DNA of 47,886 bases, taken from a virus (lineage: Duplodnaviria > Heunggongvirae > Uroviricota > Caudoviricetes). The stretch lies in IMG/VR virus record IMGVR_UViG_2563366951_000006. One strand, 5' to 3'. The translations under genes and the position numbers were made by a program. The notes under the pieces were generated by a model. That model had not been told where the DNA came from. It saw nothing but the letters and a program-made list of their open reading frames with translations, and ran no database searches. This document shows positions 1,666-47,886 of the stretch, one piece after another (positions within the stretch are counted from its first letter, which is position 1; every line of letters starts with the position of its first letter).

Positions 1666-2286
1666 GTGCGAGTTATGTCCCTTATCTCTAAAGAAGAAGC
1701 ATTGCTGGAACTTGAACCCTATTTCCCTCTGTTGCGAAAAGCTGTACATGCTGCATGGAACTCTTGGGTTACGGGTCCAATAGCACCTCGCATGCAGCAC
1801 AAGCGCGTCCGTGCAAATCTCGTATGGAATGATTATTTTTTCGAGATGATAAAAGAACTTTCAACAGGTGAACACAAAGGCATTAGGTTTGCAAAAATAC
1901 CTTATAATCAAGGGTTTGCAGTTAATGACAGATTCTTCATTAAGTTTAAAAAGGCAGACTCCAACTTCCTTTCCTCCAACCTTCAGACTCAATCAGCTAT
2001 GAAATATCATGACCCAGAGATTGATATGTTTGGCGGAGAAGTTCGCTTAGAGTTGCTGTATGTTTTAGACGATGATGGGATCAACATTGACAAAATTGCA
2101 ATTGTTCAAAGAAAAGACAAATTTGTCGCTTGGGCAATAGATATTGAAGGCGATAATGTTGCTGAAATTCCTCATACATTTGAACCAAGCACAACCGAGA
2201 CAGCTAAAACTGTCGCGAAAAAAGTTATCAAACCTCGCAAACATGCAAAAGAAAACGTGGTAAACAAAGATGGCACAAATTCCTGA
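1666..2286 (+). CDS. Hypothetical protein (206 aa), upstream partner of the HTH-ImmA gene
   Basis: AT-rich ORF; alternative ATG at 1675; 3' end overlaps the next ORF by 17 bp, suggesting translational coupling; no family recognised. Confidence 0.55.
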   Translation: MRVMSLISKEEALLELEPYFPLLRKAVHAAWNSWVTGPIAPRMQHKRVRANLVWNDYFFEMIKELSTGEHKGIRFAKIPYNQGFAVNDRFFIKFKKADSNFLSSNLQTQSAMKYHDPEIDMFGGEVRLELLYVLDDDGINIDKIAIVQRKDKFVAWAIDIEGDNVAEIPHTFEPSTTETAKTVAKKVIKPRKHAKENVVNKDGTNS

Positions 2287-3355
2287 ATCTCTCTCTTTGA
2301 TTAGAAATGAGATGATCGAGCTTCGCCGCAGAATGCTTGGAATCAGCCAAAAAGTTTTATCAGAAAAAGTGGGAATGTCCCAAGGAACCCTTTCGAAGAT
2401 AGAACAGGGACTTAAAGCTGTAACACCAGAACAAGCTCAGAAACTTTCTGAGGCATTATCATGCCCACTAAGTTTTTTTACGATGTCAGAACGCTTATAC
2501 GGTGGGCCAATCAGCGCGGCTCCAATGTATAGAAAAAAAGCATCTGTGGGTATAAAGGTTTTAGATCGCCTCATAGCAGAGATTAATGTACGAATAGCTC
2601 ACATTAGAAAACTTCTTCAGTTCGTTGATTTTGAACCAGAGTTTGAATTACCTTCATATGATCCTGACGACTACAACGGTGATGCGACTGAAATTGCAAG
2701 AAATACGCGAAAAAGTTGGTATATGCCCGCAGGTCCGGTGAAAAACTTGATCGAGGTTCTTGAAAGAGCTGGATGCTTAATAATCGAGTGTGACATGGAT
2801 GACACTGGCTTATCTGGGGTTAGCTACAACCTTCCAGGATTACCACCGATTATTTTCATCAACAGAAATCAGCCCCTTGACAGATATCGTTTTACACTAG
2901 CGCACGAGCTTGGCCATTTAGTCATGCATAAATCGCCCAATCCAAACATGGAGAGCGAAGCTGATGCTTTCGCAGCAGAATTTTTAATGCCTGCACGTGA
3001 CATATCTCCCTATCTTCGTGATATGAGCATTGAAAAAGCTGCAACCTTGAAGCCTTACTGGAGAACCTCAATGGCCTCCGTAATTTTCAGAGCCAAAACT
3101 TTAGGATATTTAAATCAGGGACAAAATGAATATATCTGGCGTCAGATGTCTGCACGCGGATACAGACTCAATGAACCAGTACAATTATCTCCTGATAATG
3201 AAAAGCCAACATTGTTAAAAGAGATATTTGAACACGTCAAACAAGAGCTTGATTATGACGAAAGCGAATTATCGCAAGTATTCTCAATACATTATGATGA
3301 AATAGAACAACTTTACCCTATTAACAAAAAAACTGGCTTAAGATTAGTTAAATAG
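2270..3355 (+). CDS. XRE-family HTH fused to ImmA/IrrE-type zinc metallopeptidase (COG2856-like)
   Basis: N-terminal HTH (ISQKVLSEKVGMSQGTLSKIEQG); C-terminal HEXXH motif (LAHELGHLVMH) with downstream EADAFAAEFLMP. Confidence 0.8.
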   Translation: MAQIPESLSLIRNEMIELRRRMLGISQKVLSEKVGMSQGTLSKIEQGLKAVTPEQAQKLSEALSCPLSFFTMSERLYGGPISAAPMYRKKASVGIKVLDRLIAEINVRIAHIRKLLQFVDFEPEFELPSYDPDDYNGDATEIARNTRKSWYMPAGPVKNLIEVLERAGCLIIECDMDDTGLSGVSYNLPGLPPIIFINRNQPLDRYRFTLAHELGHLVMHKSPNPNMESEADAFAAEFLMPARDISPYLRDMSIEKAATLKPYWRTSMASVIFRAKTLGYLNQGQNEYIWRQMSARGYRLNEPVQLSPDNEKPTLLKEIFEHVKQELDYDESELSQVFSIHYDEIEQLYPINKKTGLRLVK

Positions 3356-4173: not shown

Positions 4174-4740
4174 CTAGGTAGTTTTATTAGCTGGAAACTT
4201 CTTATAAAGAGTGCATACCGCTACATCATAAATAATTGCCACCTGCTTCCTGTTCATGCCATTCGCAATCAGTCGGCCCGCCTGGTCCCATTGTTCTTGA
4301 GTAAGCTTCGGACGCCTGCCGCCTATCCGCCCTTTCTCCCGAGCTGCAGCCAGGCCTGCCCGGGTGCGCTCAACAATCAACTCTCTTTCCATTTCCGCCA
4401 GTGCTGACATGATGTGAAATATAAAACGCCCCATTGGGCTGGAAGTGTCGATGCTGTCAGTAAGGCTCTTGAAGTGAATGCCACGTTGTCGGAGTTCGTC
4501 CACCAGCAATACCAGGTTCCTCATGCTTCGCCCGAGGCGATCCAGCTTCCAAACAACCAGCGTATCCCCCTCCTTCAGCGTTCGCAGAAGCTTTTTAAGC
4601 GCTGGCCGGTTCGCTACCGTCCCGCTCATTTTTTCCTCAAAAACCTGTTCACATCCTGCGCGTTCGAGAGCTTGCCGCTGAAGATCAGTATTTTGGTCAT
4701 TTGTTGACACCCTTACATAGCCAATTTGCATATTTTTCAC
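4174..4740 (-). CDS. Serine DNA invertase, Gin/Pin/Hin/Cin family
   Basis: MQIGYVRVSTNDQNTDLQRQAL...VWKLDRLGRSM...YDVAVCTLYKK is near-collinear with Mu Gin; catalytic Ser in the VRVSTNDQ motif. Confidence 0.92.
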   Translation of the reverse strand: MKNMQIGYVRVSTNDQNTDLQRQALERAGCEQVFEEKMSGTVANRPALKKLLRTLKEGDTLVVWKLDRLGRSMRNLVLLVDELRQRGIHFKSLTDSIDTSSPMGRFIFHIMSALAEMERELIVERTRAGLAAAREKGRIGGRRPKLTQEQWDQAGRLIANGMNRKQVAIIYDVAVCTLYKKFPANKTT

Positions 4741-4797
4741 CCAATAAATTCTGCAAAAAAATCAGGTGAAGTTATCGGCCAGGCCGCTCAAGAGCAA

Positions 4798-4821
4798 TCT
4801 ATAAAACGTCGGTTTAGGAAG
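4798..4821. other. gix/hix-like recombination site (left boundary of invertible segment)
   Basis: tctataaaacgtcggtttaggaag; inverted copy of the site at 6347..6370; resembles Mu gix TTCCTGTAAACCGAGGTTTTGGATAA. Confidence 0.6.
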
Positions 4822-4861
4822 CAGCGCCACGAAGGACGTCGGAACGGCGGCCGGAAACGTC

Positions 4862-5602
4862 ATGCAAGTGGGAGCATTTGGGCTTGGAACTATCAACGGA
4901 GACGGCCCACTGTTGGACGCTATGGACGCATTTACACCGACCTGTTTCTCCTCCCATCAAAATGACGGGATGACCCAGCTTGGGTTAACTGCAAATACCG
5001 GTATTACGTCTATAGTCGTCAATCGGGGCAGCCGACCAACCCGTATTCATCAGGCCTACATTCTAAGGCGGACGTGGTTTTCGTATTACGGTGGTTCGTC
5101 CTGGTCATATCAGGAGGCTTACACCACGGGCAATACCACAAAGTCCAGCGATGGTACCCTGAAGGCTGCGTCTCCGGTTGCGCGCATAGTGACGAGTCGG
5201 GATGCATGCCAGCGCGCTGACGTAGCCGAAGATGGTTTCTCCTGGTGCGGCTGTGGGACAGCAAACGCAGAGGCGGAGGGCATAACCCTTTCTCGCCTTG
5301 AGGCGGGCGTTTACCTGCTGACAGGTGCAGCAGGACTGGCTTCAGAGGGATGGCAGCTACTGCCACCGATGGACCCTGGTGGAATGGGAGAACTTGGCGT
5401 GGTTGAAGCTGAGCAGACGGAAAGCGGAGGCCTGACAATCCGTCTTTTCAAGCAAAAATACATCCTGAGCGGTGAAGGTGAGATCATTAAAACCAAAGGT
5501 GAACCGATGGACGTGCCGGCGAACAGTTGGATCGATGTTCGCCTGGATATGCCATCTGATTCTCTGTTTAACCAGCGGATGAATCAGGAACTTCAGCCAT
5601 AG
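4862..5602 (+). CDS. Tail-fibre variable C-terminal cassette A (inside invertible segment, currently opposite to the tail operon)
   Basis: Frame is open from the gix site (NVGLGSSATKDVG...); shares motifs with cassette B (SDGTLKAASPV, DMPSDS.FNQR). Confidence 0.55.
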   Translation: MQVGAFGLGTINGDGPLLDAMDAFTPTCFSSHQNDGMTQLGLTANTGITSIVVNRGSRPTRIHQAYILRRTWFSYYGGSSWSYQEAYTTGNTTKSSDGTLKAASPVARIVTSRDACQRADVAEDGFSWCGCGTANAEAEGITLSRLEAGVYLLTGAAGLASEGWQLLPPMDPGGMGELGVVEAEQTESGGLTIRLFKQKYILSGEGEIIKTKGEPMDVPANSWIDVRLDMPSDSLFNQRMNQELQP

Positions 5603-6221
5603 CCTTGCGCTGATTCCAGATACTGTCCTGCGGCATCTGAACACGTACAGAGACAAATTGGTCAGAAGGGATGTCTATCGGCTCGCCATCGCTGACACCC
5701 TGTAGCTCGTTCCTGGCGAACTCTGGTGCTTCAGGATGTGTGCGGTGAAAGGTTTTCACTAACACCGATCCGTCAGCATGAACCTCATAATCCAGCCATA
5801 TCAGAGGCTGCTTGTTGCGGTCGGTGGGAATATCAAAACCGCCATCAATGCCGCCCCAGGCAGCGTCAGAGTTAAGCCCTTCACATCCTTCAATCAGATA
5901 TTCACCGATGGTCAGACGGGTTACGGTGCAGCCTTCAGATTCGTCATTAGTCTGGTATGCGCCATCTGTAAACACTTTGACCACAGGCGATGCTGCTTTA
6001 ATGCTGCCATCTGATGCAACTGTAGTGTTTGCAGTCGTGTATACCTTTTTCCAAGTGTATTGGCCTCCTTGATTGTGAGTAGTCTGAATATATGCTTTTC
6101 CATCATTAGACCAAACGAACCATGAAAAAGATGGGGCACCATCATACTGCAACTGCAGCCCGACTCCTCCACCTCCGGGGGAGTTGATCGTTGATGTTGT
6201 ATACCTACCAAATCCAAGCAC
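5568..6221 (-). CDS. Tail-fibre variable C-terminal cassette B (inside invertible segment, co-directional with the tail operon)
   Basis: GTG start at 6221; same frame stays open upstream through the gix site to 6371 (KVGLGDAATRGV...); homologous to cassette A. Confidence 0.55.
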   Translation of the reverse strand: MLGFGRYTTSTINSPGGGGVGLQLQYDGAPSFSWFVWSNDGKAYIQTTHNQGGQYTWKKVYTTANTTVASDGSIKAASPVVKVFTDGAYQTNDESEGCTVTRLTIGEYLIEGCEGLNSDAAWGGIDGGFDIPTDRNKQPLIWLDYEVHADGSVLVKTFHRTHPEAPEFARNELQGVSDGEPIDIPSDQFVSVRVQMPQDSIWNQRKAMAEVPDSSAG

Positions 6222-30340: not shown

Positions 30341-30778
30341 GTTGCCAGTTTTCAATGAAGATAATGCGGGCAAAAAAAGCCTGCTCGGACGAACAGGCAT
30401 GAAAAATAACAATACCGTCAAGGAGGTGGCGCCGGGTGCCTCCCGGTGGAACAGCCCCAGCCGACTAGTTCCGCGCAAACAAACCTGGACAAAAAAGTTT
30501 GACTGGACGCCCCGCCGCATAGGGGGATTCACCACGAACCAAAAGATAAAATCATCCGGTGACCGGGGCAATATCTAACCGGAACTTTTCAGAATCACTT
30601 ATTGTTTCCTGGAGAGTACATGAGCGTTGGTGAATTCACGTGATGCTTTTGGATGAGCGCTGAACCCAAAGGTCAGTATTTTCACACAGCAATTTTGCAA
30701 AAAGCAGCGCCCATTCAAAACCAGGTCGCTTTCCAGTCACTCCGGGGACCCCATCATCGCAGACCGAAAAGCTTAAAC

Positions 30779-30853
<75 letters not shown>

Positions 30854-30856
30854 ATA

Positions 30857-30932
<76 letters not shown>

Positions 30933-30934
30933 AG

Positions 30935-31008
30935 TGGTCCGCCACCGGAGCCTCGAACCCCGTACCACAACACCTGGGTTGCCGCTCTTCCCGATGAGCT
31001 AGTGGCGG
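30935..31008 (-). tRNA. tRNA-like gene with non-canonical anticodon arm (anticodon unassigned)
   Basis: Perfect acceptor (CCGCCAC/GTGGCGG), D and T arms; best anticodon-arm fold is GCAAC/GTTGT around a 6-nt loop CCAGGT. Confidence 0.5.
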
Positions 31009-31010
31009 TC

Positions 31011-31087
31011 TGGTGGCCCTTGCTGGACTTGAACCAGCGACCGGGCGATTATGAGTCGCACGCTCTAACCAACTGAGCTAAAGGGCC
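31011..31087 (-). tRNA. tRNA with CAT anticodon, Ile2-like (lysidine) or Met
   Basis: Manual fold: anticodon loop CTCATAA; resembles enterobacterial ileX as I recall it. Confidence 0.75.
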
Positions 31088-35396: not shown

Positions 35397-36380
35397 TCAT
35401 GGGCGATACCCGCCACGGTTCATGCGATCGATCGCTGACTGATTGATAAACACCTCGGCAGAGCCGTCATCAGACTTTGCGTACCACTCGTAGCGAGACT
35501 GGTCTTGTCGGGTAGGGACTTTGTTTTCCTGGGTCTCTACCAGCCACGGTTCATCGAAATGTTTATCCGGCCCGAAGAACGTCGCCGCCTGCTTGACGAA
35601 CGAAGTACCGATCTTTCCCTCAGAGGCCATGAAAGCTGCGTAGCGCTTAACCCCTTCCAGCATCGTCTCTGGTTTTACGCCCTGTTTAATACGTGCGTTC
35701 CAGGCTTTGAATGCGCTTAGCTTGTTATTTCCACCGCTACGTTTTGGGTATGCCTGCCAGGCTTCTTCAAATGCAGGAGAATAATCAGTTGAAGATTTCA
35801 CTTTCGGTGTGTCGGCTTCAGCCGATGCACCAAGATATTTATTCTCTGTATTAATCTTCTGTGTAGTCTCCTGGTAATCTACTGTATGAATGGATGCGGA
35901 ATTTCCACATGACTGCTCGTTGGTTTTCCCCATACCTGCATGCTGGTTTTCCGCATCACTGTTTGCGGAAATTCCGCATCCTTGTTTGTTGGTTTTCCCC
36001 ATACCTGCATGCTGGTTTTCGCCAAGTAGAAGTTCTTCCAAGCGCTCCTGGTTTACTCTGAAATATAATTTTGCTGGGATGCCACGTTTTGCTTCTTCCA
36101 GTACGCCACAGGAAACCAGCTTTTTACGCGCTCCCTCTTGTTCGTAACGCGTTAATCCAGTCTCTTCTTCGAGATCTGTCTGGGTTTTGTAGAACCAATT
36201 CCCTTCCATGCGGTTCTGCCAATAGACAATCTGTGACAATAGCAATGCACCTGTAATACCCACGCCAAGGCGAACGAAGGACCGTTGAAAGGCTATTGGA
36301 CGATCAACGAGCTGTAAGAAATTGCTCACTCCACAACCCTCCTGAAATAATTTTGAAACTTCCAGACAGGCTGCATGCAT
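35397..36380 (-). CDS. Replication initiation / replisome organiser protein
   Basis: N-terminal winged-helix-like region; internal tandem protein repeat ENQHAGMGKTN encoded by iteron-like DNA repeats. Confidence 0.65.
   Translation of the reverse strand: MHAACLEVSKLFQEGCGVSNFLQLVDRPIAFQRSFVRLGVGITGALLLSQIVYWQNRMEGNWFYKTQTDLEEETGLTRYEQEGARKKLVSCGVLEEAKRGIPAKLYFRVNQERLEELLLGENQHAGMGKTNKQGCGISANSDAENQHAGMGKTNEQSCGNSASIHTVDYQETTQKINTENKYLGASAEADTPKVKSSTDYSPAFEEAWQAYPKRSGGNNKLSAFKAWNARIKQGVKPETMLEGVKRYAAFMASEGKIGTSFVKQAATFFGPDKHFDEPWLVETQENKVPTRQDQSRYEWYAKSDDGSAEVFINQSAIDRMNRGGYRP
35891..36021. repeat. Iteron-like tandem direct repeats plus 15-bp palindrome (candidate origin)
   Basis: 33-bp perfect repeat gttggttttccccatacctgcatgctggttttc at about 35919 and 35989; palindrome tgcggaaattccgca at 35964..35978. 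Confidence 0.6.
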
Positions 36381-41034: not shown

Positions 41035-41233
41035 TTGCGTACCACTTTCAACCTACTGCCGGGACGCCGGAGAAACGGTTGAAGCCGTTAACAAACGGAT
41101 ACAAAGGGGGTTATGGAAAGAGGGTGTCCATGTATTAAAAGTCGATGGCGTTAAAGAACGCTGGATAGACTTAACGGAGGTTTCAAAGTGGGCAAGAAAG
41201 AACAAGGATCATTATCTCTCCCAAGAGGAGTAA
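41024..41233 (+). CDS. xis: Excisionase (Xis-like)
   Basis: ATG at 41024 with RBS gggagg; 69-aa basic protein overlapping the int start by 46 bp, as in lambda xis-int. Confidence 0.55.
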   Translation: MSLDCVPLSTYCRDAGETVEAVNKRIQRGLWKEGVHVLKVDGVKERWIDLTEVSKWARKNKDHYLSQEE

Positions 41234-42360
41234 CCATTCGCCAGCATAAAACTGGCGACACCCTGGTGATCACATTCACCTACAAGGGGGTTCTCTGCCG
41301 GGAGCCCCTTTCCAGAATGGAAGCAAACGCGCGCGGCGTGAAGTATGCCGAGCGCCTGCTGGGGGAGATACAGAATCAGATCGCCGGCGGCACATTCGAT
41401 TATGCGAAATACTTCCCCACCTCCAAAAAACTGGAGCTGTTCGGGGTAGTGAAGAAAACCAAAAATATTAAGTCCTACCTGGACGAGTATCTGAAAATCT
41501 GCCAGAACCGCAACCTTTCGCCGTCCACTATTGGCGGTTATGAAAAGTGCCTGTCTGCGCTATCTGCGCTGCACAAAATGCATGTATCGGAACTGACCCC
41601 TGCGGTCCTCAAAAACTGGATCGCCAGCAGAAAAACAAAGCTGAAAACAATCAGGAATAACCTCTCGTTTCTGCGCAGCGCCATAGATGAAGCGGTGACA
41701 GACGGCCTGCTGACTATCAACCCGGTAACCCTTGTCAGCGCGAGTCGGTACCACGTGATCGACAGCAGCCCGAATAGTGACGATTACGAAGTTGATCCGT
41801 TCACACCAGCGGAAATCAGCGCCATTTACCAGAGCTGCAGTTATCCGGAATGGGAAAACCTGTTCCGTTTCGCATTCAATACAGGTTTACGCAGCTCTGA
41901 GCTGTGTGCGTTGCGCTGGCCTGATCTCGACAATATCGCTAAAACAGCTCACGTTCAGGCGGCGAGTGTTGTTGGCGTTCTGAAAGGCACCAAAACAAAA
42001 GCCGGTACCCGTAAAGTAGAATTAAACAGCGAGGCGCTGGCCGCGCTGCAGGCGCAGAAACAATTCACTTTCATGAAAAGCGAGTTTATTTTCAGCGACC
42101 CTAAAACGGGAGAGCCCTGGGCGAACGCCGACGCAATACGAAAAAAAGCATGGGTGCCAACCCTCAAAAAAGCTGGCGTTCGATACCGTAACCCGTACCA
42201 GACCCGCCACACATTCGCCACCAGACACATTAGCCAGGGCGTAAACCTTTTCTGGCTTGCCGGGCAGATGGGGCATAAAGGGCCGGAAATGCTGTTCCGC
42301 AATTACGGTAAATACCTGGCTGAATACGACGGGAAAACCGCCATTTCAGCAGCTCTGTAG
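41188..42360 (+). CDS. int: Tyrosine integrase (prophage)
   Basis: 390 aa; C-terminal catalytic region with RHTFATRHISQG...HKGPEMLFRNYGKY (R-H-R-Y signature); adjacent to attR. Confidence 0.9.
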   Translation: MGKKEQGSLSLPRGVTIRQHKTGDTLVITFTYKGVLCREPLSRMEANARGVKYAERLLGEIQNQIAGGTFDYAKYFPTSKKLELFGVVKKTKNIKSYLDEYLKICQNRNLSPSTIGGYEKCLSALSALHKMHVSELTPAVLKNWIASRKTKLKTIRNNLSFLRSAIDEAVTDGLLTINPVTLVSASRYHVIDSSPNSDDYEVDPFTPAEISAIYQSCSYPEWENLFRFAFNTGLRSSELCALRWPDLDNIAKTAHVQAASVVGVLKGTKTKAGTRKVELNSEALAALQAQKQFTFMKSEFIFSDPKTGEPWANADAIRKKAWVPTLKKAGVRYRNPYQTRHTFATRHISQGVNLFWLAGQMGHKGPEMLFRNYGKYLAEYDGKTAISAAL

Positions 42361-42484
42361 CGTCGTGAGTATTTCAAAATGTTGGACGGAATCAGGACGT
42401 TAGAGGGACCACGATATGCACGTAAAATGCACTTGAGGCCTTTCAAAAAAGACAAAACATTAATATTCAATAGGTTAAGCATTA

Positions 42485-42524
42485 TTCGGACACGGGTTCA
42501 ACTCCCGCCAGCTCCACCACTTTT
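42485..42524. repeat. attR core: second copy of the ssrA 3'-end repeat
   Basis: ttcggacAcgggttcaactcccgccagctccaccactttt. Confidence 0.85.
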
Positions 42525-42556
42525 TAGTTGTTTGAAGTACAATGAAGTCTACTAAG

Positions 42557-42594
42557 CCCGCATGGAATCAGCCTTGCGGGCTTTTTTACGTCTA
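42557..42594 (+). terminator. Terminator-like hairpin after the att core
   Basis: aagcccgca-loop-tgcgggctt stem followed by a T-rich run. Confidence 0.5.
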
Positions 42595-42684
42595 TTGTCG
42601 TCCAGTGAGAATTGCTGAGAACTATCACATATGGCACCCTGAATGGGACCCACTAAGAAGGGTCCAAAAACCGAGGGTCCCAAA

Positions 42685-43914
42685 ATGGCAAAAATCGCTA
42701 AGAAGCTCACTGACACTGAAATCAAAAGCACCAAACCAGCCGACAAAGAAATCAACTTGTTTGACGGAGATGGTTTGATACTACGAATCGCTCCCCTCTC
42801 GAAAGGAGGAAAGAAGAATTGGTATTTCAGGTATGCAGTGCCAGTGAGTAAAAAAAGAACCAAAATGAGCCTTGGGACCTATCCTCACCTTACACTGGCA
42901 AGAGCCAGAGCCTTACGAGATGAATACCTTTCCTTGCTTGCTAATGGCATTGATCCCCAAGTTCATAACAACGATAAAGCTAATGCCTTAAAGAATGCTA
43001 CTGAACACACTCTCCAAGCCGTGGCAAGGAAATGGTTGGATGAGAAGGTAAAGACCTCTGGTATCTCACAAGACCATGCAGAAGACATCTGGCGAAGCTT
43101 GGAGAGAAATATATTTCCCGGCTTGGGTAAGGTTCCTATCAATGAGATCCGACCCAAACTCTTAAAGCAACATCTCGACCCTATTGAGCAACGAGGAGTC
43201 CTCGAAACCTTACGGCGAATCATTTCCCGATTAAATGAAATATTTCGCTGGGCCGCGACTGAAGAACTTATCGAGTTCAATCCGGCTGACAACCTTGGGC
43301 AACGGTTCAGTAAGCCTAAAAAACAGAATATGCCAGCATTACCCCCTTCCGAGTTACCCCGCTTCCTAATGGTGTTAAACAATGCCTCAGTTCGTATGGA
43401 GACAAGATTGCTGATTGAATGGCAATTGCTGACCTGGGTTCGTCCAGGGGAAGCCGTTCGTGCGAGATGGGCCGATATAGATACTGAAAAATCGATGTGG
43501 AACATCCCGGCTGAGTTTATGAAAATGAAGAAGCCTCACAAAGTTCCACTAAGCAAAGAAGCTTTGCGAGTCTTGGATTCAATGAAAGCCATCAGTGGGC
43601 ACAGAGAGTGGGTTTTCCCCAGTATCAAAGCTCCACTCAATCATATGCATGAACAAACAGCGAATGCGGCCATAATCCGTATGGGCTTTGGTGGAGAGCT
43701 TGTAGCCCATGGAATGAGATCTATTGCACGAACGGCCTCAGAGGAGTCGGGTAAGTTCAGGACAGATGTCTTAGAAGCGGCCCTTGCTCACTCGAAGAAA
43801 GATGAAATAATTGCCGCATATAATCGCGCAGATTATCTTGCAGAACGAGTGGTTCTCATGCAGTGGTGGAGTGATTATGTGCAAGCTCAAAGGCTAAAAG
43901 CCATTGCAGCTTAA
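42685..43914 (+). CDS. P4-type (CP4-57 IntA-like) tyrosine integrase
   Basis: N-terminus KLTDTEIKSTKPADKEINLFDGDGLILRI typical of P4-family integrases; start taken at internal ATG (track ORF from 42643). Confidence 0.88.
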   Translation: MAKIAKKLTDTEIKSTKPADKEINLFDGDGLILRIAPLSKGGKKNWYFRYAVPVSKKRTKMSLGTYPHLTLARARALRDEYLSLLANGIDPQVHNNDKANALKNATEHTLQAVARKWLDEKVKTSGISQDHAEDIWRSLERNIFPGLGKVPINEIRPKLLKQHLDPIEQRGVLETLRRIISRLNEIFRWAATEELIEFNPADNLGQRFSKPKKQNMPALPPSELPRFLMVLNNASVRMETRLLIEWQLLTWVRPGEAVRARWADIDTEKSMWNIPAEFMKMKKPHKVPLSKEALRVLDSMKAISGHREWVFPSIKAPLNHMHEQTANAAIIRMGFGGELVAHGMRSIARTASEESGKFRTDVLEAALAHSKKDEIIAAYNRADYLAERVVLMQWWSDYVQAQRLKAIAA

Positions 43915-44238
43915 TAATTAAAAAACACATAATAAACAAAGGTAATTACTAGGATTGCATCTCTATTTTCAACGAACAACTTAGAACCATACACCCAGCA
44001 TTAACCAATTAAAGCCCTGTTTTAGCTTCTGAGATTAAGCAATAGCTGGTCAAATAATTTCAGAAGCTTTTTTTTTGATCCAAACCAAACAACACTACTT
44101 AACTCATTGTATATATTGTTTTTTTATGTTAGCAATAAATACAATGTACAGCATACATGCATATGTTGGGGCGGTAGCATTTAAATGTACAATTCTCATC
44201 CGTAAAGTTCACACAGCATTTATGAATAAGGTTGGTCT

Positions 44239-47200
44239 ATGAGTGAAAATAAACTGTTTGATAATTATGAGATTATAGAAAGAAATCTACTAAAAACAGA
44301 ATCAAATAGAAATATTCCTGAAGTAATTCTTACCCTTAAAGATGGAGAGAGTTACATTATCAAACATTGGCCAAGAAATACCTCAAGTGATGAACAAGTT
44401 CTTGAAAGTATTTGGCAACATGAATTACGACAACTACAAAGGTTAAAGGGATATCCTGGAGTAGGAGATTATATAGTAAATCCTGTTGAATCAAAAAAAA
44501 CAAATGAAGGGTACTATCTTGTTTTAAATTCTGATGGTAGAGTACCTACTTCTTACTTATTGAATAAAAGAACATTATCTCTCCCAAGAAAAAGCCACTG
44601 GCTCACCCGTTTAAAAGATCCGGCAGTTAGAATCAGATTCTGGAAAAATATCTGTAGAATTACAAATGCTATTGGTTTGCTTCATGCGCAAGGGTTGTTA
44701 CATCGACATTTAGATGAAAATTCAATTCTAACATATGATTATGAATCAGATGATTATAACGATTTTCAATTGACCGGCTTCGAGTGGTCAATCCGAATGC
44801 CTACACTTACCAGAGCTAAAATTGAGCCTGTTGGTGAACACGGTAAAATATCAACTTTTGCTACAGATTGGATCGATTTAGGAATTTTAATAGCAAACTT
44901 TTTAAAAATAGATATAAATGAAATTAAATCTCTGCAGTTCCCAGCAGAATACTTCATTTCTAAGTACGATCTGACAATTAGTGAAGTAGCTATAATTCGT
45001 AGTCTATTAGGAATCCAACCTATTCAGCAAAATGCTATAAAAGAACTTCTTGGTGAAAAAGATATTCTACAGTTTTTAGATGGTATAATTGATGAGCTTA
45101 CTGAATTCTATAAAAAAACGAAAACTATTCATGGGTTAGCAATAAACACTAAGTATGAACAATCTGATAATACCAAAGATAAAAAAGAGCTATTTCACTG
45201 CATACAAAAAATAATCTTTGAGAAAAGTGAATTCACAATATCCAGAGATGACTCTGATATAATAAAGAGTTTCGTAAGCGAAGATTTATCAGATTCACCA
45301 GTATTATTTGTTAATACCTCAGAACACAATCGATATGATGTAGTATTGAAAGGGAAAGAACTTTTTTATGTACTAACACCATTTCAACCTGACCATCGAA
45401 CGAGTGACAAAACATGGGATTTAGGTTATTCACAATATGCATATTTAGAGTTGCCAAATAGATTCTTTGGTAAAGATAATTACATTGAACTAAATAGTAA
45501 TAATATATCATGTTATACTCATTACGAAGCCAGGAAATTTTTGAATAGTAATGATAACTCATTAAGCCTACTGTCTTGGGAAATGATTTTCAAAGATATA
45601 GGTAAAACTAAAAACAAAAGAAATGAAGAACATCTTCGATTATTGGAGGGCCTAACTGCCGTTCATATTACAAATATCGCATATGCAAAAGCAGAAATTT
45701 TCCCTGTAGAAAACATCAGTGAAGAAAGCGAACCAGATAATATTAGCTCATGGATCTTTAAATTCATTCCCAAATTTGACGAAACAACGGAGGAACTGTC
45801 TAAGTCGCTAAGTATCGACTCACCATCTGTCAGGCTTGAAAAGATTATAAATAGTAGTGAAAACAACGATAAGGTATCCTGGAGTTTAGTAGACAATAAT
45901 GATTTCAGTAGAGTTGACGAAGAGATTCTTTTAGAGTTTTATGGCTATGAAACAGATCAAGACAATCAAGAAATATATAGCTTCATCTCTAAAAAACCTC
46001 TTCCAGAATGGAGGAATTTTTATATTGTTCCCGACTCGATTGAAGGAACTCTGCGCCAAATAACAAGACATGCAAATACATTGGATATGCTTGAAAATCA
46101 TATCGAATTGATGAATGTAATTACTTCCCCTAATTCAAATCTCACAGTAAGCAATGAAGATATAATTGCAAAAGATATAATGGACTCATTGGATGAATCT
46201 AAACAAAGAGTTTTTACAAAAGTATTATCAACATTGCCAATGAACCTTGTACAAGGTCCACCGGGAGTAGGTAAAACTCACTTAGTCAAAGCAATTTCTA
46301 AATTTATCTTTAAAGAAGAACCTAATAGCAGGATACTCTTTACCGCACAGAGTCATGCAACCGTTCAACATCTATATCACGAAGTTGTCAAAGATTTACT
46401 TACTGAAAACAAACATACAAATGATCCCATAATTATTAGATGCAACAAAATATCTGGCGAAGATAATATAATATTAAACAGTGCCGATGAAACTGGATTA
46501 GAATATTTGCGGAAGTTCGTAGAAAGCCCTTTATACAAAAACTCTTCCAATCAAAGTTTAAAAAGTAATATTTCCAGTTTGCTTAAAGCTCCTCCAGTAA
46601 AGAGATACCCACTAATTAATCAACTAATTAAATCAGCAAGCTTAATATTTGCTACAACTAATTCAGATTATGTAGAGAGAATGATAAAAGAAAGAGCACA
46701 ATTTGATTGGTCGATCATGGAAGAAAGTGGAAAGGTTACAGGTATAGAATTAATAAGCCCACTTTTATTATCCTACCGACGATTAATGATCGGTGATCAC
46801 AATCAATTGCCACCGTATCGTTCAATTGAGTTAAGAAACATTTTAACCAATAATACAAAACTTAAAAACACCTTTGAAGAAGTTGACAGCATAAGTAATT
46901 TTAAATTAAAAAATGAACTAATGCGTAATAGTCACTTTTCATCAATAACCGATGATCAAGCAAGAGAAATAGGATTACGGGCAGCCAAATATGTAAATCT
47001 ATTTGAATCTCTTATTATTGATGATGAAAGACAAGACGTAATGTATGAAAAAATAAAGGGAAAAGATTATAAAAGAAACAATAAATTATCCTCAATGCTG
47101 TCAGTCCAGCACCGTATGCATCCTCATATTGCAGAAGTGATTTCAAATGTTTTTTATAACAACAAATTAGTTACCGATAAAGATAAAGAAAGGAAGTATC

Positions 47201-47886
47201 TTACAGAAGATTTTCAATCAGTACTTAACTTAAAAGAGGAATCTCACCTCACAAATACACCAGCACTGGTATGGATTAGTCAACCAGATGTACAAAAAAC
47301 TAAAGGTAACAGAGCAGGAGAGCATACACCAATCTGGTCAAACGAAAGTGAATGTAAGGCAATCATAGATATTCTCAAAGATTTGGACAAGAACTCCAAC
47401 CCAACAAAAAAAATAAAGTTGGCAATTCTTTCTCCATACTCAAATCAAGTTAAATTAATTTCAAAGCATATTGAAATTGAAAAGAAAAAAAATCAATTCA
47501 AAACACTTTTAAATAATTACATTCCACCAGATGATAATGATGGTTATTGCCTTACTGTTGATTCGTTCCAAGGTGGCGAAGCTGATATTGTCTTAATTTC
47601 ATTAGTACGAAACAATGGTAAAAGCACAATTAAGAGTGCATTAGGATTTTTATCAGATCAACGCCGTATAAATGTTTTACTTAGTAGAGCAAAGTACAAA
47701 TTGATCATAGTCGGTTCATATGAACTCCTCAAGGCTTGGTCTAATCGTATATCCAGAGAGAACTCAAAAGAATATGATTTTATTCCAAGACTAACTGATA
47801 AACTGGATTTGTCTTTAAATGAGAGAAAGCTTTCATTAATTACATCAAACTTTATAACAAACAAAGGAAATAAAAATGAAAAATAA
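44239..47886 (+). CDS. Kinase-like N-terminal domain fused to Upf1-like SF1 helicase (1215 aa); candidate defence protein, MkoA-like
   Basis: Kinase-like motifs YIIKHW, HRHLDENSIL, LTGFEW; helicase motifs LVQGPPGVGKTH, IMEESGK, LMIGDHNQLPP, VDSFQGGEADIVLISLVRNN, RRINVLLSRAKYKLIIVG; very AT-rich. Confidence 0.85.
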   Translation: MSENKLFDNYEIIERNLLKTESNRNIPEVILTLKDGESYIIKHWPRNTSSDEQVLESIWQHELRQLQRLKGYPGVGDYIVNPVESKKTNEGYYLVLNSDGRVPTSYLLNKRTLSLPRKSHWLTRLKDPAVRIRFWKNICRITNAIGLLHAQGLLHRHLDENSILTYDYESDDYNDFQLTGFEWSIRMPTLTRAKIEPVGEHGKISTFATDWIDLGILIANFLKIDINEIKSLQFPAEYFISKYDLTISEVAIIRSLLGIQPIQQNAIKELLGEKDILQFLDGIIDELTEFYKKTKTIHGLAINTKYEQSDNTKDKKELFHCIQKIIFEKSEFTISRDDSDIIKSFVSEDLSDSPVLFVNTSEHNRYDVVLKGKELFYVLTPFQPDHRTSDKTWDLGYSQYAYLELPNRFFGKDNYIELNSNNISCYTHYEARKFLNSNDNSLSLLSWEMIFKDIGKTKNKRNEEHLRLLEGLTAVHITNIAYAKAEIFPVENISEESEPDNISSWIFKFIPKFDETTEELSKSLSIDSPSVRLEKIINSSENNDKVSWSLVDNNDFSRVDEEILLEFYGYETDQDNQEIYSFISKKPLPEWRNFYIVPDSIEGTLRQITRHANTLDMLENHIELMNVITSPNSNLTVSNEDIIAKDIMDSLDESKQRVFTKVLSTLPMNLVQGPPGVGKTHLVKAISKFIFKEEPNSRILFTAQSHATVQHLYHEVVKDLLTENKHTNDPIIIRCNKISGEDNIILNSADETGLEYLRKFVESPLYKNSSNQSLKSNISSLLKAPPVKRYPLINQLIKSASLIFATTNSDYVERMIKERAQFDWSIMEESGKVTGIELISPLLLSYRRLMIGDHNQLPPYRSIELRNILTNNTKLKNTFEEVDSISNFKLKNELMRNSHFSSITDDQAREIGLRAAKYVNLFESLIIDDERQDVMYEKIKGKDYKRNNKLSSMLSVQHRMHPHIAEVISNVFYNNKLVTDKDKERKYLTEDFQSVLNLKEESHLTNTPALVWISQPDVQKTKGNRAGEHTPIWSNESECKAIIDILKDLDKNSNPTKKIKLAILSPYSNQVKLISKHIEIEKKKNQFKTLLNNYIPPDDNDGYCLTVDSFQGGEADIVLISLVRNNGKSTIKSALGFLSDQRRINVLLSRAKYKLIIVGSYELLKAWSNRISRENSKEYDFIPRLTDKLDLSLNERKLSLITSNFITNKGNKNEK

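Follow-up and report, generated by a model that had tools for sequence, protein, structure and literature searches.

The right-hand end of the IMG/VR virus record IMGVR_UViG_2563366951_000006, a stretch of 47,886 nucleotides (nt) analysed here in full and referred to as the window, is occupied by a giant AT-rich gene whose product joins a kinase-like half to a Upf1-like helicase, which raises the question of whether it belongs to a described defence system, stands alone as an undescribed one or is simply a housekeeping helicase. A preliminary description, made from the DNA letters alone, had suggested that the gene might encode MkoA of type I Mokosh, with a phospholipase D (PLD) nuclease as partner. 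We conclude with high confidence that the gene at 44239-47886 is indeed mkoA, which opens a two-gene type I Mokosh operon (mkoA-mkoB), and that it is the first cargo of a small island with a P4-type integrase at the ssrA hotspot of the Escherichia coli chromosome, lying in tandem behind a lambdoid prophage that uses the same attachment site. The gene is one open reading frame (ORF) on the plus strand, encoding 1215 residues plus stop; since it starts with ATG and its stop codon forms the final three bases of the window, it is complete. Its GC content is 0.30-0.34 throughout, against 0.44-0.54 for the 8 kb upstream, so that an intact, AT-rich gene far below its flanking DNA in GC, as first described, is what we find. 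The product is made up of a protein-kinase-fold domain (residues 1-295, 44239-45123, +), recognised by a family profile, the Pfam matches of relatives, AlphaFold2 and Foldseek; linker domains (residues 296-665, 45124-46233, +), delimited by AlphaFold2 and by likeness to the accessory region of Upf1-like proteins; and a superfamily 1B (SF1B) Upf1-like helicase core (residues 666-1165, 46234-47733, +), recognised by Pfam AAA_11 and AAA_12 and by motif conservation in the family.

The identification is carried by a profile match and by an experimentally verified relative. The PADLOC MkoA model (PDLC03920) matched the mkoA product end to end (E 3.3e-269, 894.6 bits; residues 3-1189 against profile positions 4-1097 of 1112), and the protein aligned without gaps over 1215 residues to MkoA of enterotoxigenic E. 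coli (ETEC) H10407 at 81% identity, which bears out the attribution first made. In their account of Mokosh, Millman et al. [quoted passage not shown] Their supplement lists the ETEC H10407 construct SG202 as 'Mokosh type I', verified, with a 'Kinase-Helicase MkoA' that begins MSENKLFDNYEIIERNLLKTESDKNIPEINLALK (IMG protein 2597791081; MkoB is 2597791080). The locus order in H10407 is smpB-ssrA-integrase-mkoA-mkoB, encoding an MkoA of 1215 and an MkoB of 602 residues. The window system resembles it in this order, including the P4-type integrase, in an 11-nt overlap of mkoA and mkoB, in the ungapped length of MkoA, in the 81% identity of MkoA and MkoB alike and in having His at the position of the HRD Asp in both MkoA proteins. 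It differs from it as a distinct allele (84% nucleotide identity), in an MkoB of 605 rather than 602 residues (as read in loci matching the window) and in its setting, the H10407 island lying directly at ssrA whereas that of the window lies behind a prophage. The Mokosh type I system found here is already known, being a close allele of the verified one, and anti-phage function of the window allele is predicted from its orthology with the H10407 system.

Mokosh type II (MkoC; for example E. coli K-12 YjhR) shares the Upf1-like helicase and PLD nuclease chemistry, and in the description by Millman et al. it is one fused polypeptide without a kinase-like domain. We rejected this identity for the window system, in which two separate genes and a kinase fold are present and the MkoC profile gave partial matches only, to MkoA (1.3e-19, residues 822-1170) and to MkoB (3.4e-19).

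The helicase half of MkoA is a canonical one by its motifs. Pfam assigned AAA_12 (2.5e-43) and AAA_11 (1.4e-22), which together make up the Upf1-like SF1B core, and the motifs were located at residues 673-680 (I, GPPGVGKT), 827 (II, MEES), 852-859 (III, GDHNQLPP), 957 (IV, QHRMHP), 1107-1116 (V, VDSFQGGEAD) and 1142-1151 (VI, RRINVLLSRA). When the query was aligned with 87 full-length cluster representatives (clusters at 50% identity; 88 sequences in all), the key positions of motifs I-VI showed a conservation of 0.9-1.0. The complete SF1B Upf1/DNA2-like set that had been read from the letters is therefore confirmed, well above anything that chance would give, and the loss of conservation that the preliminary description had named as an argument against itself was not seen. 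In its Walker A sequence GPPGVGKT the COG1112/Upf1-like SF1 helicase domain of MkoA retains an intact ATP-binding site. The solved sequences nearest to this domain are Upf1, Sen1, DNA2 and IGHMBP2, a likeness that would also be expected of a housekeeping Upf1/DNA2-like helicase acting in host RNA or DNA metabolism. We give that explanation practically no chance, however, since the module of attachment site (att), integrase and mkoA occurs in 6 of 5426 complete E. coli genomes, the gene is low in GC and sits on an integrase island, the TIGR00376 model for IGHMBP2 scores 152 bits, far under its cutoff of 348.9, and the H10407 ortholog is experimentally verified as anti-phage; the distribution and the phenotype of the ortholog together refute it.

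In front of the helicase core, AlphaFold2 modelled residues 296-665 with a predicted local distance difference test (pLDDT) score of 81.7 and a predicted template modelling (pTM) score of only 0.48, which indicates that the region is multi-domain. The accessory region before RecA1 resembles the barrel and stalk domains of Sen1/SETX, IGHMBP2 and Upf1; this likeness is confined to the later part of 296-665, and residues ~296-460 have no assigned fold. MkoA thus shares with Upf1, Sen1/SETX, IGHMBP2 and DNA2 the core motifs and the accessory barrel and stalk, but identity to these eukaryotic helicases is low, MkoA lacks the CH and other eukaryotic accessory domains, its kinase-fold N terminus is specific to bacteria and its gene belongs to an operon on a mobile island. 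Cury et al. draw a parallel between such a duo of helicase and PLD nuclease and the piRNA pair MOV10L1 and PLD6/Zucchini.

Does MkoA have its PLD partner here? The 3' end of the window reads ...AAAGGAAATAAAAATGAAAAATAA, and its last 11 nt, ATGAAAAATAA (47876-47886, +), are the beginning of mkoB, encoding MKN... and overlapping the end of mkoA. The mkoB coding sequence of E. coli G3/10 likewise begins 11 nt ahead of the mkoA stop, and its product has 605 residues (MKNKNIYV...). G3/10 MkoB matched PADLOC MkoB (3.2e-105) and Pfam PLDc_2 (7e-18), contains two HxKxxxxD motifs, H371-D378 (HAKVIVCD) and H557-D564 (HAKILSWD), and is 81% identical to H10407 MkoB. Between 42485 and 47886 the window is 99.98% identical to G3/10, with a single mismatch, which falls in a copy of an ssrA repeat. 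When exact sequence matches were sought in the collection, 1568 of its blocks contained the identical MkoA and 1417 the identical integrase. Among the places listed, ten with the identical MkoA and ten with the identical integrase, drawn from partly overlapping sets of assemblies, all 20 had the order int-mkoA-mkoB and a PLD gene overlapping mkoA by 11 nt, of 605 residues in 19 and of 568 in one. The mkoB downstream of the window is thus deduced from loci that differ from it at 0-4 positions (99.93-100% identity), and the PLD partner that had been foreseen downstream begins, at 47876, within the window itself. A stand-alone kinase-helicase, that is, an undescribed single-gene system without a PLD partner, had been put forward as the fallback; the window does end at the mkoA stop codon, and nothing further speaks for it. 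Given the mkoB start codon and first 11 nt in the window, the PLD gene in every related locus and the end-to-end match to the MkoA model, we hold such a system to be very improbable and in effect refuted, and the fallback is not needed.

The position of the operon was described at first as directly behind an integrase at the ssrA hotspot, a statement that holds for the integrase and has to be amended for ssrA. The gene for the transfer-messenger RNA, ssrA, which is the attachment hotspot, lies at 698-1060 (+; ARAGORN, tag ANDENYALAA; Rfam RF00023, 295.8 bits). Both smpB and ssrA, at the start of the window, are 100% identical to those of E. coli G3/10 and H10407, which identifies the host as E. 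coli. A 40-nt stretch of the ssrA 3' end (direct repeat family D2) occurs twice on the plus strand, proximally at 1026-1065, where it forms the left att core of the prophage, and distally at 42485-42524, where the island starts; the distal copy is 98% identical, with one mismatch at 42492. It lies 160 nt upstream of the annotated start of a P4-type (PRK09692) tyrosine integrase at 42685-43914 (+; NCBIfam NF007246, 438.7 bits against a cutoff of 434), which has 409 residues in the RefSeq annotation of G3/10 and whose longest ORF runs from 42643; precomputed Pfam matches to it are Arm-DNA-bind_3, Phage_int_M and Phage_integrase. The integrase is separated from mkoA by an AT-rich intergenic spacer of 324 nt (43915-44238, +), delimited from the sequence and presumed to be the promoter region. 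A scan of 42300-44400 for promoters and terminators yielded nothing above the expectation from shuffled sequence; the verified H10407 construct begins in the homologous intergenic region.

Between ssrA and the island lies a lambdoid siphovirus prophage of ~41.4 kb (1061-42484; PHROGs), inserted in the ssrA 3' end and bounded by the D2 repeats, so that the island is ~41 kb away from ssrA itself. Insertion of the prophage duplicates 40 nt of ssrA, and the Mokosh island follows this duplicate as the second member of a tandem array. Of the E. coli matches listed for 42400-47886, nearly all, and among them every mkoA locus, begin exactly at 42485 (query base 86); where the prophage is lacking, as in G3/10 and H10407, the integrase comes immediately after ssrA. 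The G3/10 island continues past mkoB (L001, 22276-35402) with genes for a relaxase/mobilisation nuclease, an ankyrin-repeat protein and several hypothetical proteins, together with frameshifted genes for a DNA-binding protein and a tyrosine recombinase, which suggests that the remainder of that island is a decaying mobilisable element.

Several points weigh against this account of a complete operon on a defined island. Of the window's own mkoB only 11 nt are visible, and the window MkoA differs from the verified H10407 protein at 19% of residues. No second copy of the ssrA 3' end (with up to 3 mismatches) was found within ~60 kb downstream in G3/10, where the region is a mosaic, interspersed with insertion sequence (IS) elements and recombinase pseudogenes, as far as glaH, the point at which core genes start again. 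The literature searched contained no resolved mechanism for type I, and type I Mokosh resisted purification in one systematic biochemical survey. Moreover, one related genome has a truncated mkoB (568 residues; L021, 15190-16896) and another a split mkoA (ORFs of 130 and 1029 residues; L015, 11554-15202), IS elements adjoin or enter the island in several genomes, the matched stretch in ECONIH5 and strain 135 being interrupted by them, and decay is possible in some strains. These last observations, with the shortness of the visible mkoB, are also what would be expected if the locus were decayed or silent here, for example through truncation or interruption of mkoB past the end of the window, leaving the system non-functional. 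We consider this improbable, because mkoA in the window is full length and the identical protein is found in contigs from the 1568 blocks, because 42485-47886 differs from intact loci at one base, within the ssrA repeat, and because mkoB encodes 605 residues in 19 of the 20 related places.

With the locus read as an intact type I Mokosh operon, a second question concerns its kinase-like half, which is called STK in the published system. Of the Pfam families expected in MkoA, AAA_11 and AAA_12 were found, but Pkinase gave no match for the window protein alone, even at E<=1. A word-indexed homolog search with residues 1-491 returned 18 matches, mostly fragments, and an exhaustive search of representatives returned 320 clusters. 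A family profile of 12 sequences matched solved kinases, GCN2 best at 3.5e-5, followed by PKR, PERK, TTK and PAK4, and nine of 12 MkoA relatives matched PF00069 (Pkinase). AlphaFold2 modelled residues 1-300 (36 sequences) with a pLDDT of 85 and a pTM of 0.85; Foldseek gave 1914 PDB matches to this model at E<=0.001, and all 50 among the matches listed are protein-kinase or kinase-like domains, with query-normalised TM-scores of 0.53-0.60. The agreement of family profile, Pfam matches of relatives and structure prediction led us to reject the reading that the N terminus is not a kinase fold, and the kinase-like character first seen in its motifs is confirmed at the level of fold.

The residues that a kinase needs are another matter. 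The motifs from which the kinase likeness had been read were, like those of the helicase, all located in the product, YIIK at residues 39-42, HRHLDENSIL at 155-164 and LTGFEW at 178-183. Profile alignment sets LHAQGLLHRHLD on GCN2 IHSQGIIHRDLKPMNI, which places H157 at the position of the HRD catalytic Asp, as had been recognised; the family consensus LHxQGLLHRNLD aligns with GCN2 IHSQGIIHR[D/N]LKPMNI, and the printed sequence of the GCN2 kinase-domain entry 1zxe, the best PDB sequence match, reads HRN. The assignment of LTGFEW to the DFG position was wrong, however: the DFG equivalent is D175-F176-Q177, 18 residues past H157, and LTGFEW is a near-invariant segment right after it. In PKA the distance from D166 to D184 equals that from position 157 to D175 in MkoA. 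The N-terminal alignment of 91 sequences showed that the beta3 Lys (K42) is K or R in 90, the alphaC Glu (E62) is E in 90 and the DFG Asp (D175) is D in 75. By contrast, at the position of the catalytic-loop Asn (162; Ser in the window protein) the same alignment has S in 49, A in 23 and N in seven sequences, and at the position of the HRD Asp (157; His in the window protein) the residues among 88 sequences are N57, R7, K5, G4, S4, A4, H2, Q2, D2 and L1, so that Asp, as HRD or HGD, is found in just two. Neither the sequence nor the AlphaFold2 model of MkoA has a Gly-rich GxGxxG loop between strands beta1 and beta2. Judged as a Hanks-type kinase, therefore, MkoA has the Lys-Glu-DFG Asp triad and lacks the HRD Asp, the catalytic-loop Asn and the Gly-rich loop, and the early suspicion of a divergent kinase or pseudokinase is borne out and extends to the whole family.

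This combination of lost and kept residues makes the 'STK' domain more likely a regulatory or sensor pseudokinase than a phosphotransferase. From its sequences and predicted fold, the published type I Mokosh 'STK' domain looks like a family-wide pseudokinase or a non-canonical kinase-fold module, one that may still bind nucleotide. HER3/ErbB3 is a pseudokinase with HRN in place of HRD, and such HRN pseudokinases resemble the MkoA domain in that the catalytic Asp is exchanged but the kinase fold and the Lys-Glu-DFG Asp triad are preserved, although common descent with the MkoA domain is supported no further than the eukaryotic protein kinase (ePK) superfamily. We lean, at a little better than even confidence, towards the view that the domain is not a kinase and instead serves the helicase and PLD nuclease as a sensor or allosteric switch gated by a nucleotide or ligand, or catalyses a non-canonical reaction in the way of some other kinase-fold enzymes. 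Two considerations pull the other way: some kinases and kinase-fold enzymes function without the canonical Asp, and the pseudokinase reading is drawn from sequence and predicted fold only. The alternative, that the N terminus is an active Ser/Thr kinase phosphorylating phage or host proteins in a sensing or effector role much like other defences built on kinases, draws on the clear protein-kinase fold, on the retention of the beta3 Lys, alphaC Glu and DFG Asp, which suggests that nucleotide binding is under selection, on HRD or HGD in two of the 88 aligned sequences and on the STK annotation in the Mokosh account of Millman et al. We regard it as rather unlikely, since the catalytic Asp is replaced in 86 of 88 sequences, by His here and by Asn in most, the catalytic-loop Asn is mostly Ser or Ala, the Gly-rich loop is missing, the window protein falls below Pfam Pkinase detection and no kinase-site mutant is described in that account. 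In the literature searched, no paper named both 'Mokosh' and 'pseudokinase'.

How the two proteins might act can be sketched by analogy. MkoA and MkoB probably act together like other nuclease-NTPase defence pairs: the MkoA helicase would load on phage-derived nucleic acid, be it RNA, an RNA/DNA hybrid or a replication intermediate, and move along it 5'->3', driven by ATP, and its movement would license or deliver the PLD nuclease MkoB, whose cutting of the nucleic acid would stop phage replication, with the kinase-fold domain regulating or sensing rather than phosphorylating. The HIDEN-SEQ preprint reports that T-even phages depend on both DNA glucosylation and the Alt ADP-ribosyltransferase for their escape from type I Mokosh, a type I system of uropathogenic E. 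coli (UPEC) restricting T-even phages that lack Alt or the beta-alpha-glucosyltransferase; the system of UPEC CFE331 restricts T4 delta-alt, Bas37 mutants and Bas54. This dual dependence of evasion suggests that the system senses or targets the status of phage DNA and that ADP-ribosylation can neutralise a protein of the host or of the defence. Where they discuss Mokosh, Millman et al. proposed RNA as the target; the dependence on glucosylation hints at DNA.

The distribution of the att-int-mkoA module points to mobility. Its 5.4-kb stretch is 99.93-100% identical in ~20 assemblies (L002-L022), and in several hosts the ssrA flank is only ~94% identical to that of the window while the module is 99.98% identical. 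Near-identity of the module in hosts with such flanks, together with its rarity among complete E. coli genomes, indicates recent horizontal spread; hosts with ~6% divergence in the ssrA flank probably represent several enterobacterial lineages. The junction with the prophage was not found together with mkoA in any of the complete E. coli genomes in the collection, mkoA matches beginning at the att copy, and the window prophage preceded the module in none of the 20 places shown by the exact look-ups. Other elements take its place elsewhere: in L019 (1-9700) an identical int-mkoA-mkoB lies behind a P2/186-like prophage, next to a gene for a SEFIR/TIR protein, and in L013 (1-9400) behind an island encoding a BapA-type adhesin and a type 1 secretion system. 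These two arrangements indicate that tandem accretion in front of this integrase is recurrent.

The prophage itself gave PHROGs matches to tail J, tape measure, major head, large terminase, primase/helicase and O-like replication proteins, and has its own tyrosine integrase at 41188-42360. At its att-proximal end, the ORF at 2270-3355 (+) encodes an RmrA-like protein with helix-turn-helix and zinc-metallopeptidase parts (PADLOC RmrA 2.9e-54), the antitoxin component of RosmerTA, and is overlapped from upstream by an ORF at 1666-2286 (+, 206 residues) without a family match, which could be the RosmerTA toxin; the two would form a second defence candidate. A resolvase/invertase gene (4174-4740, -) adjoins two opposed ORFs (4862-5602, +, and 5568-6221, -) that both encode a phage tail-fibre C-terminal domain, and we read the layout of 4174-6221 as that of an invertible switch of host range, comparable to Mu Gin/G or e14 Pin. 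A tRNA cluster at 30368-31087 (-) comprises Gly-TCC, Thr-TGT and Met-CAT; a match to the small RNA STnc100 covers 30368-30560, and ARAGORN reported a 'tRNA-???' with a two-base anticodon at 30935-31008, where the Rfam tRNA model was silent at its gathering threshold. Four tandem iteron-like repeats of 23 nt (35886-36020) lie inside the gene for the O-like replication initiator (35397-36380, -) and are probably the replication origin of the prophage. A different 23-nt direct repeat, with two copies 91% identical, links the 5' end of the prophage integrase gene (41204-41226) with mkoA (44567-44589) and is probably a chance match.

In conclusion, mkoA-mkoB is a textbook case of a catalogued defence system, one that PADLOC or DefenseFinder would call automatically, and the window system is a close allele of an experimentally verified one that matches it in chromosomal hotspot as well. 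The window also provides a clean example of tandem accretion at ssrA, in which a prophage and a defence island share the site. Only the family-wide absence of kinase catalytic residues adds a little to what the literature searched contains, and it is a moderate, testable side lead: it offers a concrete and cheaply testable hypothesis on the regulation of the still uncharacterised type I Mokosh.

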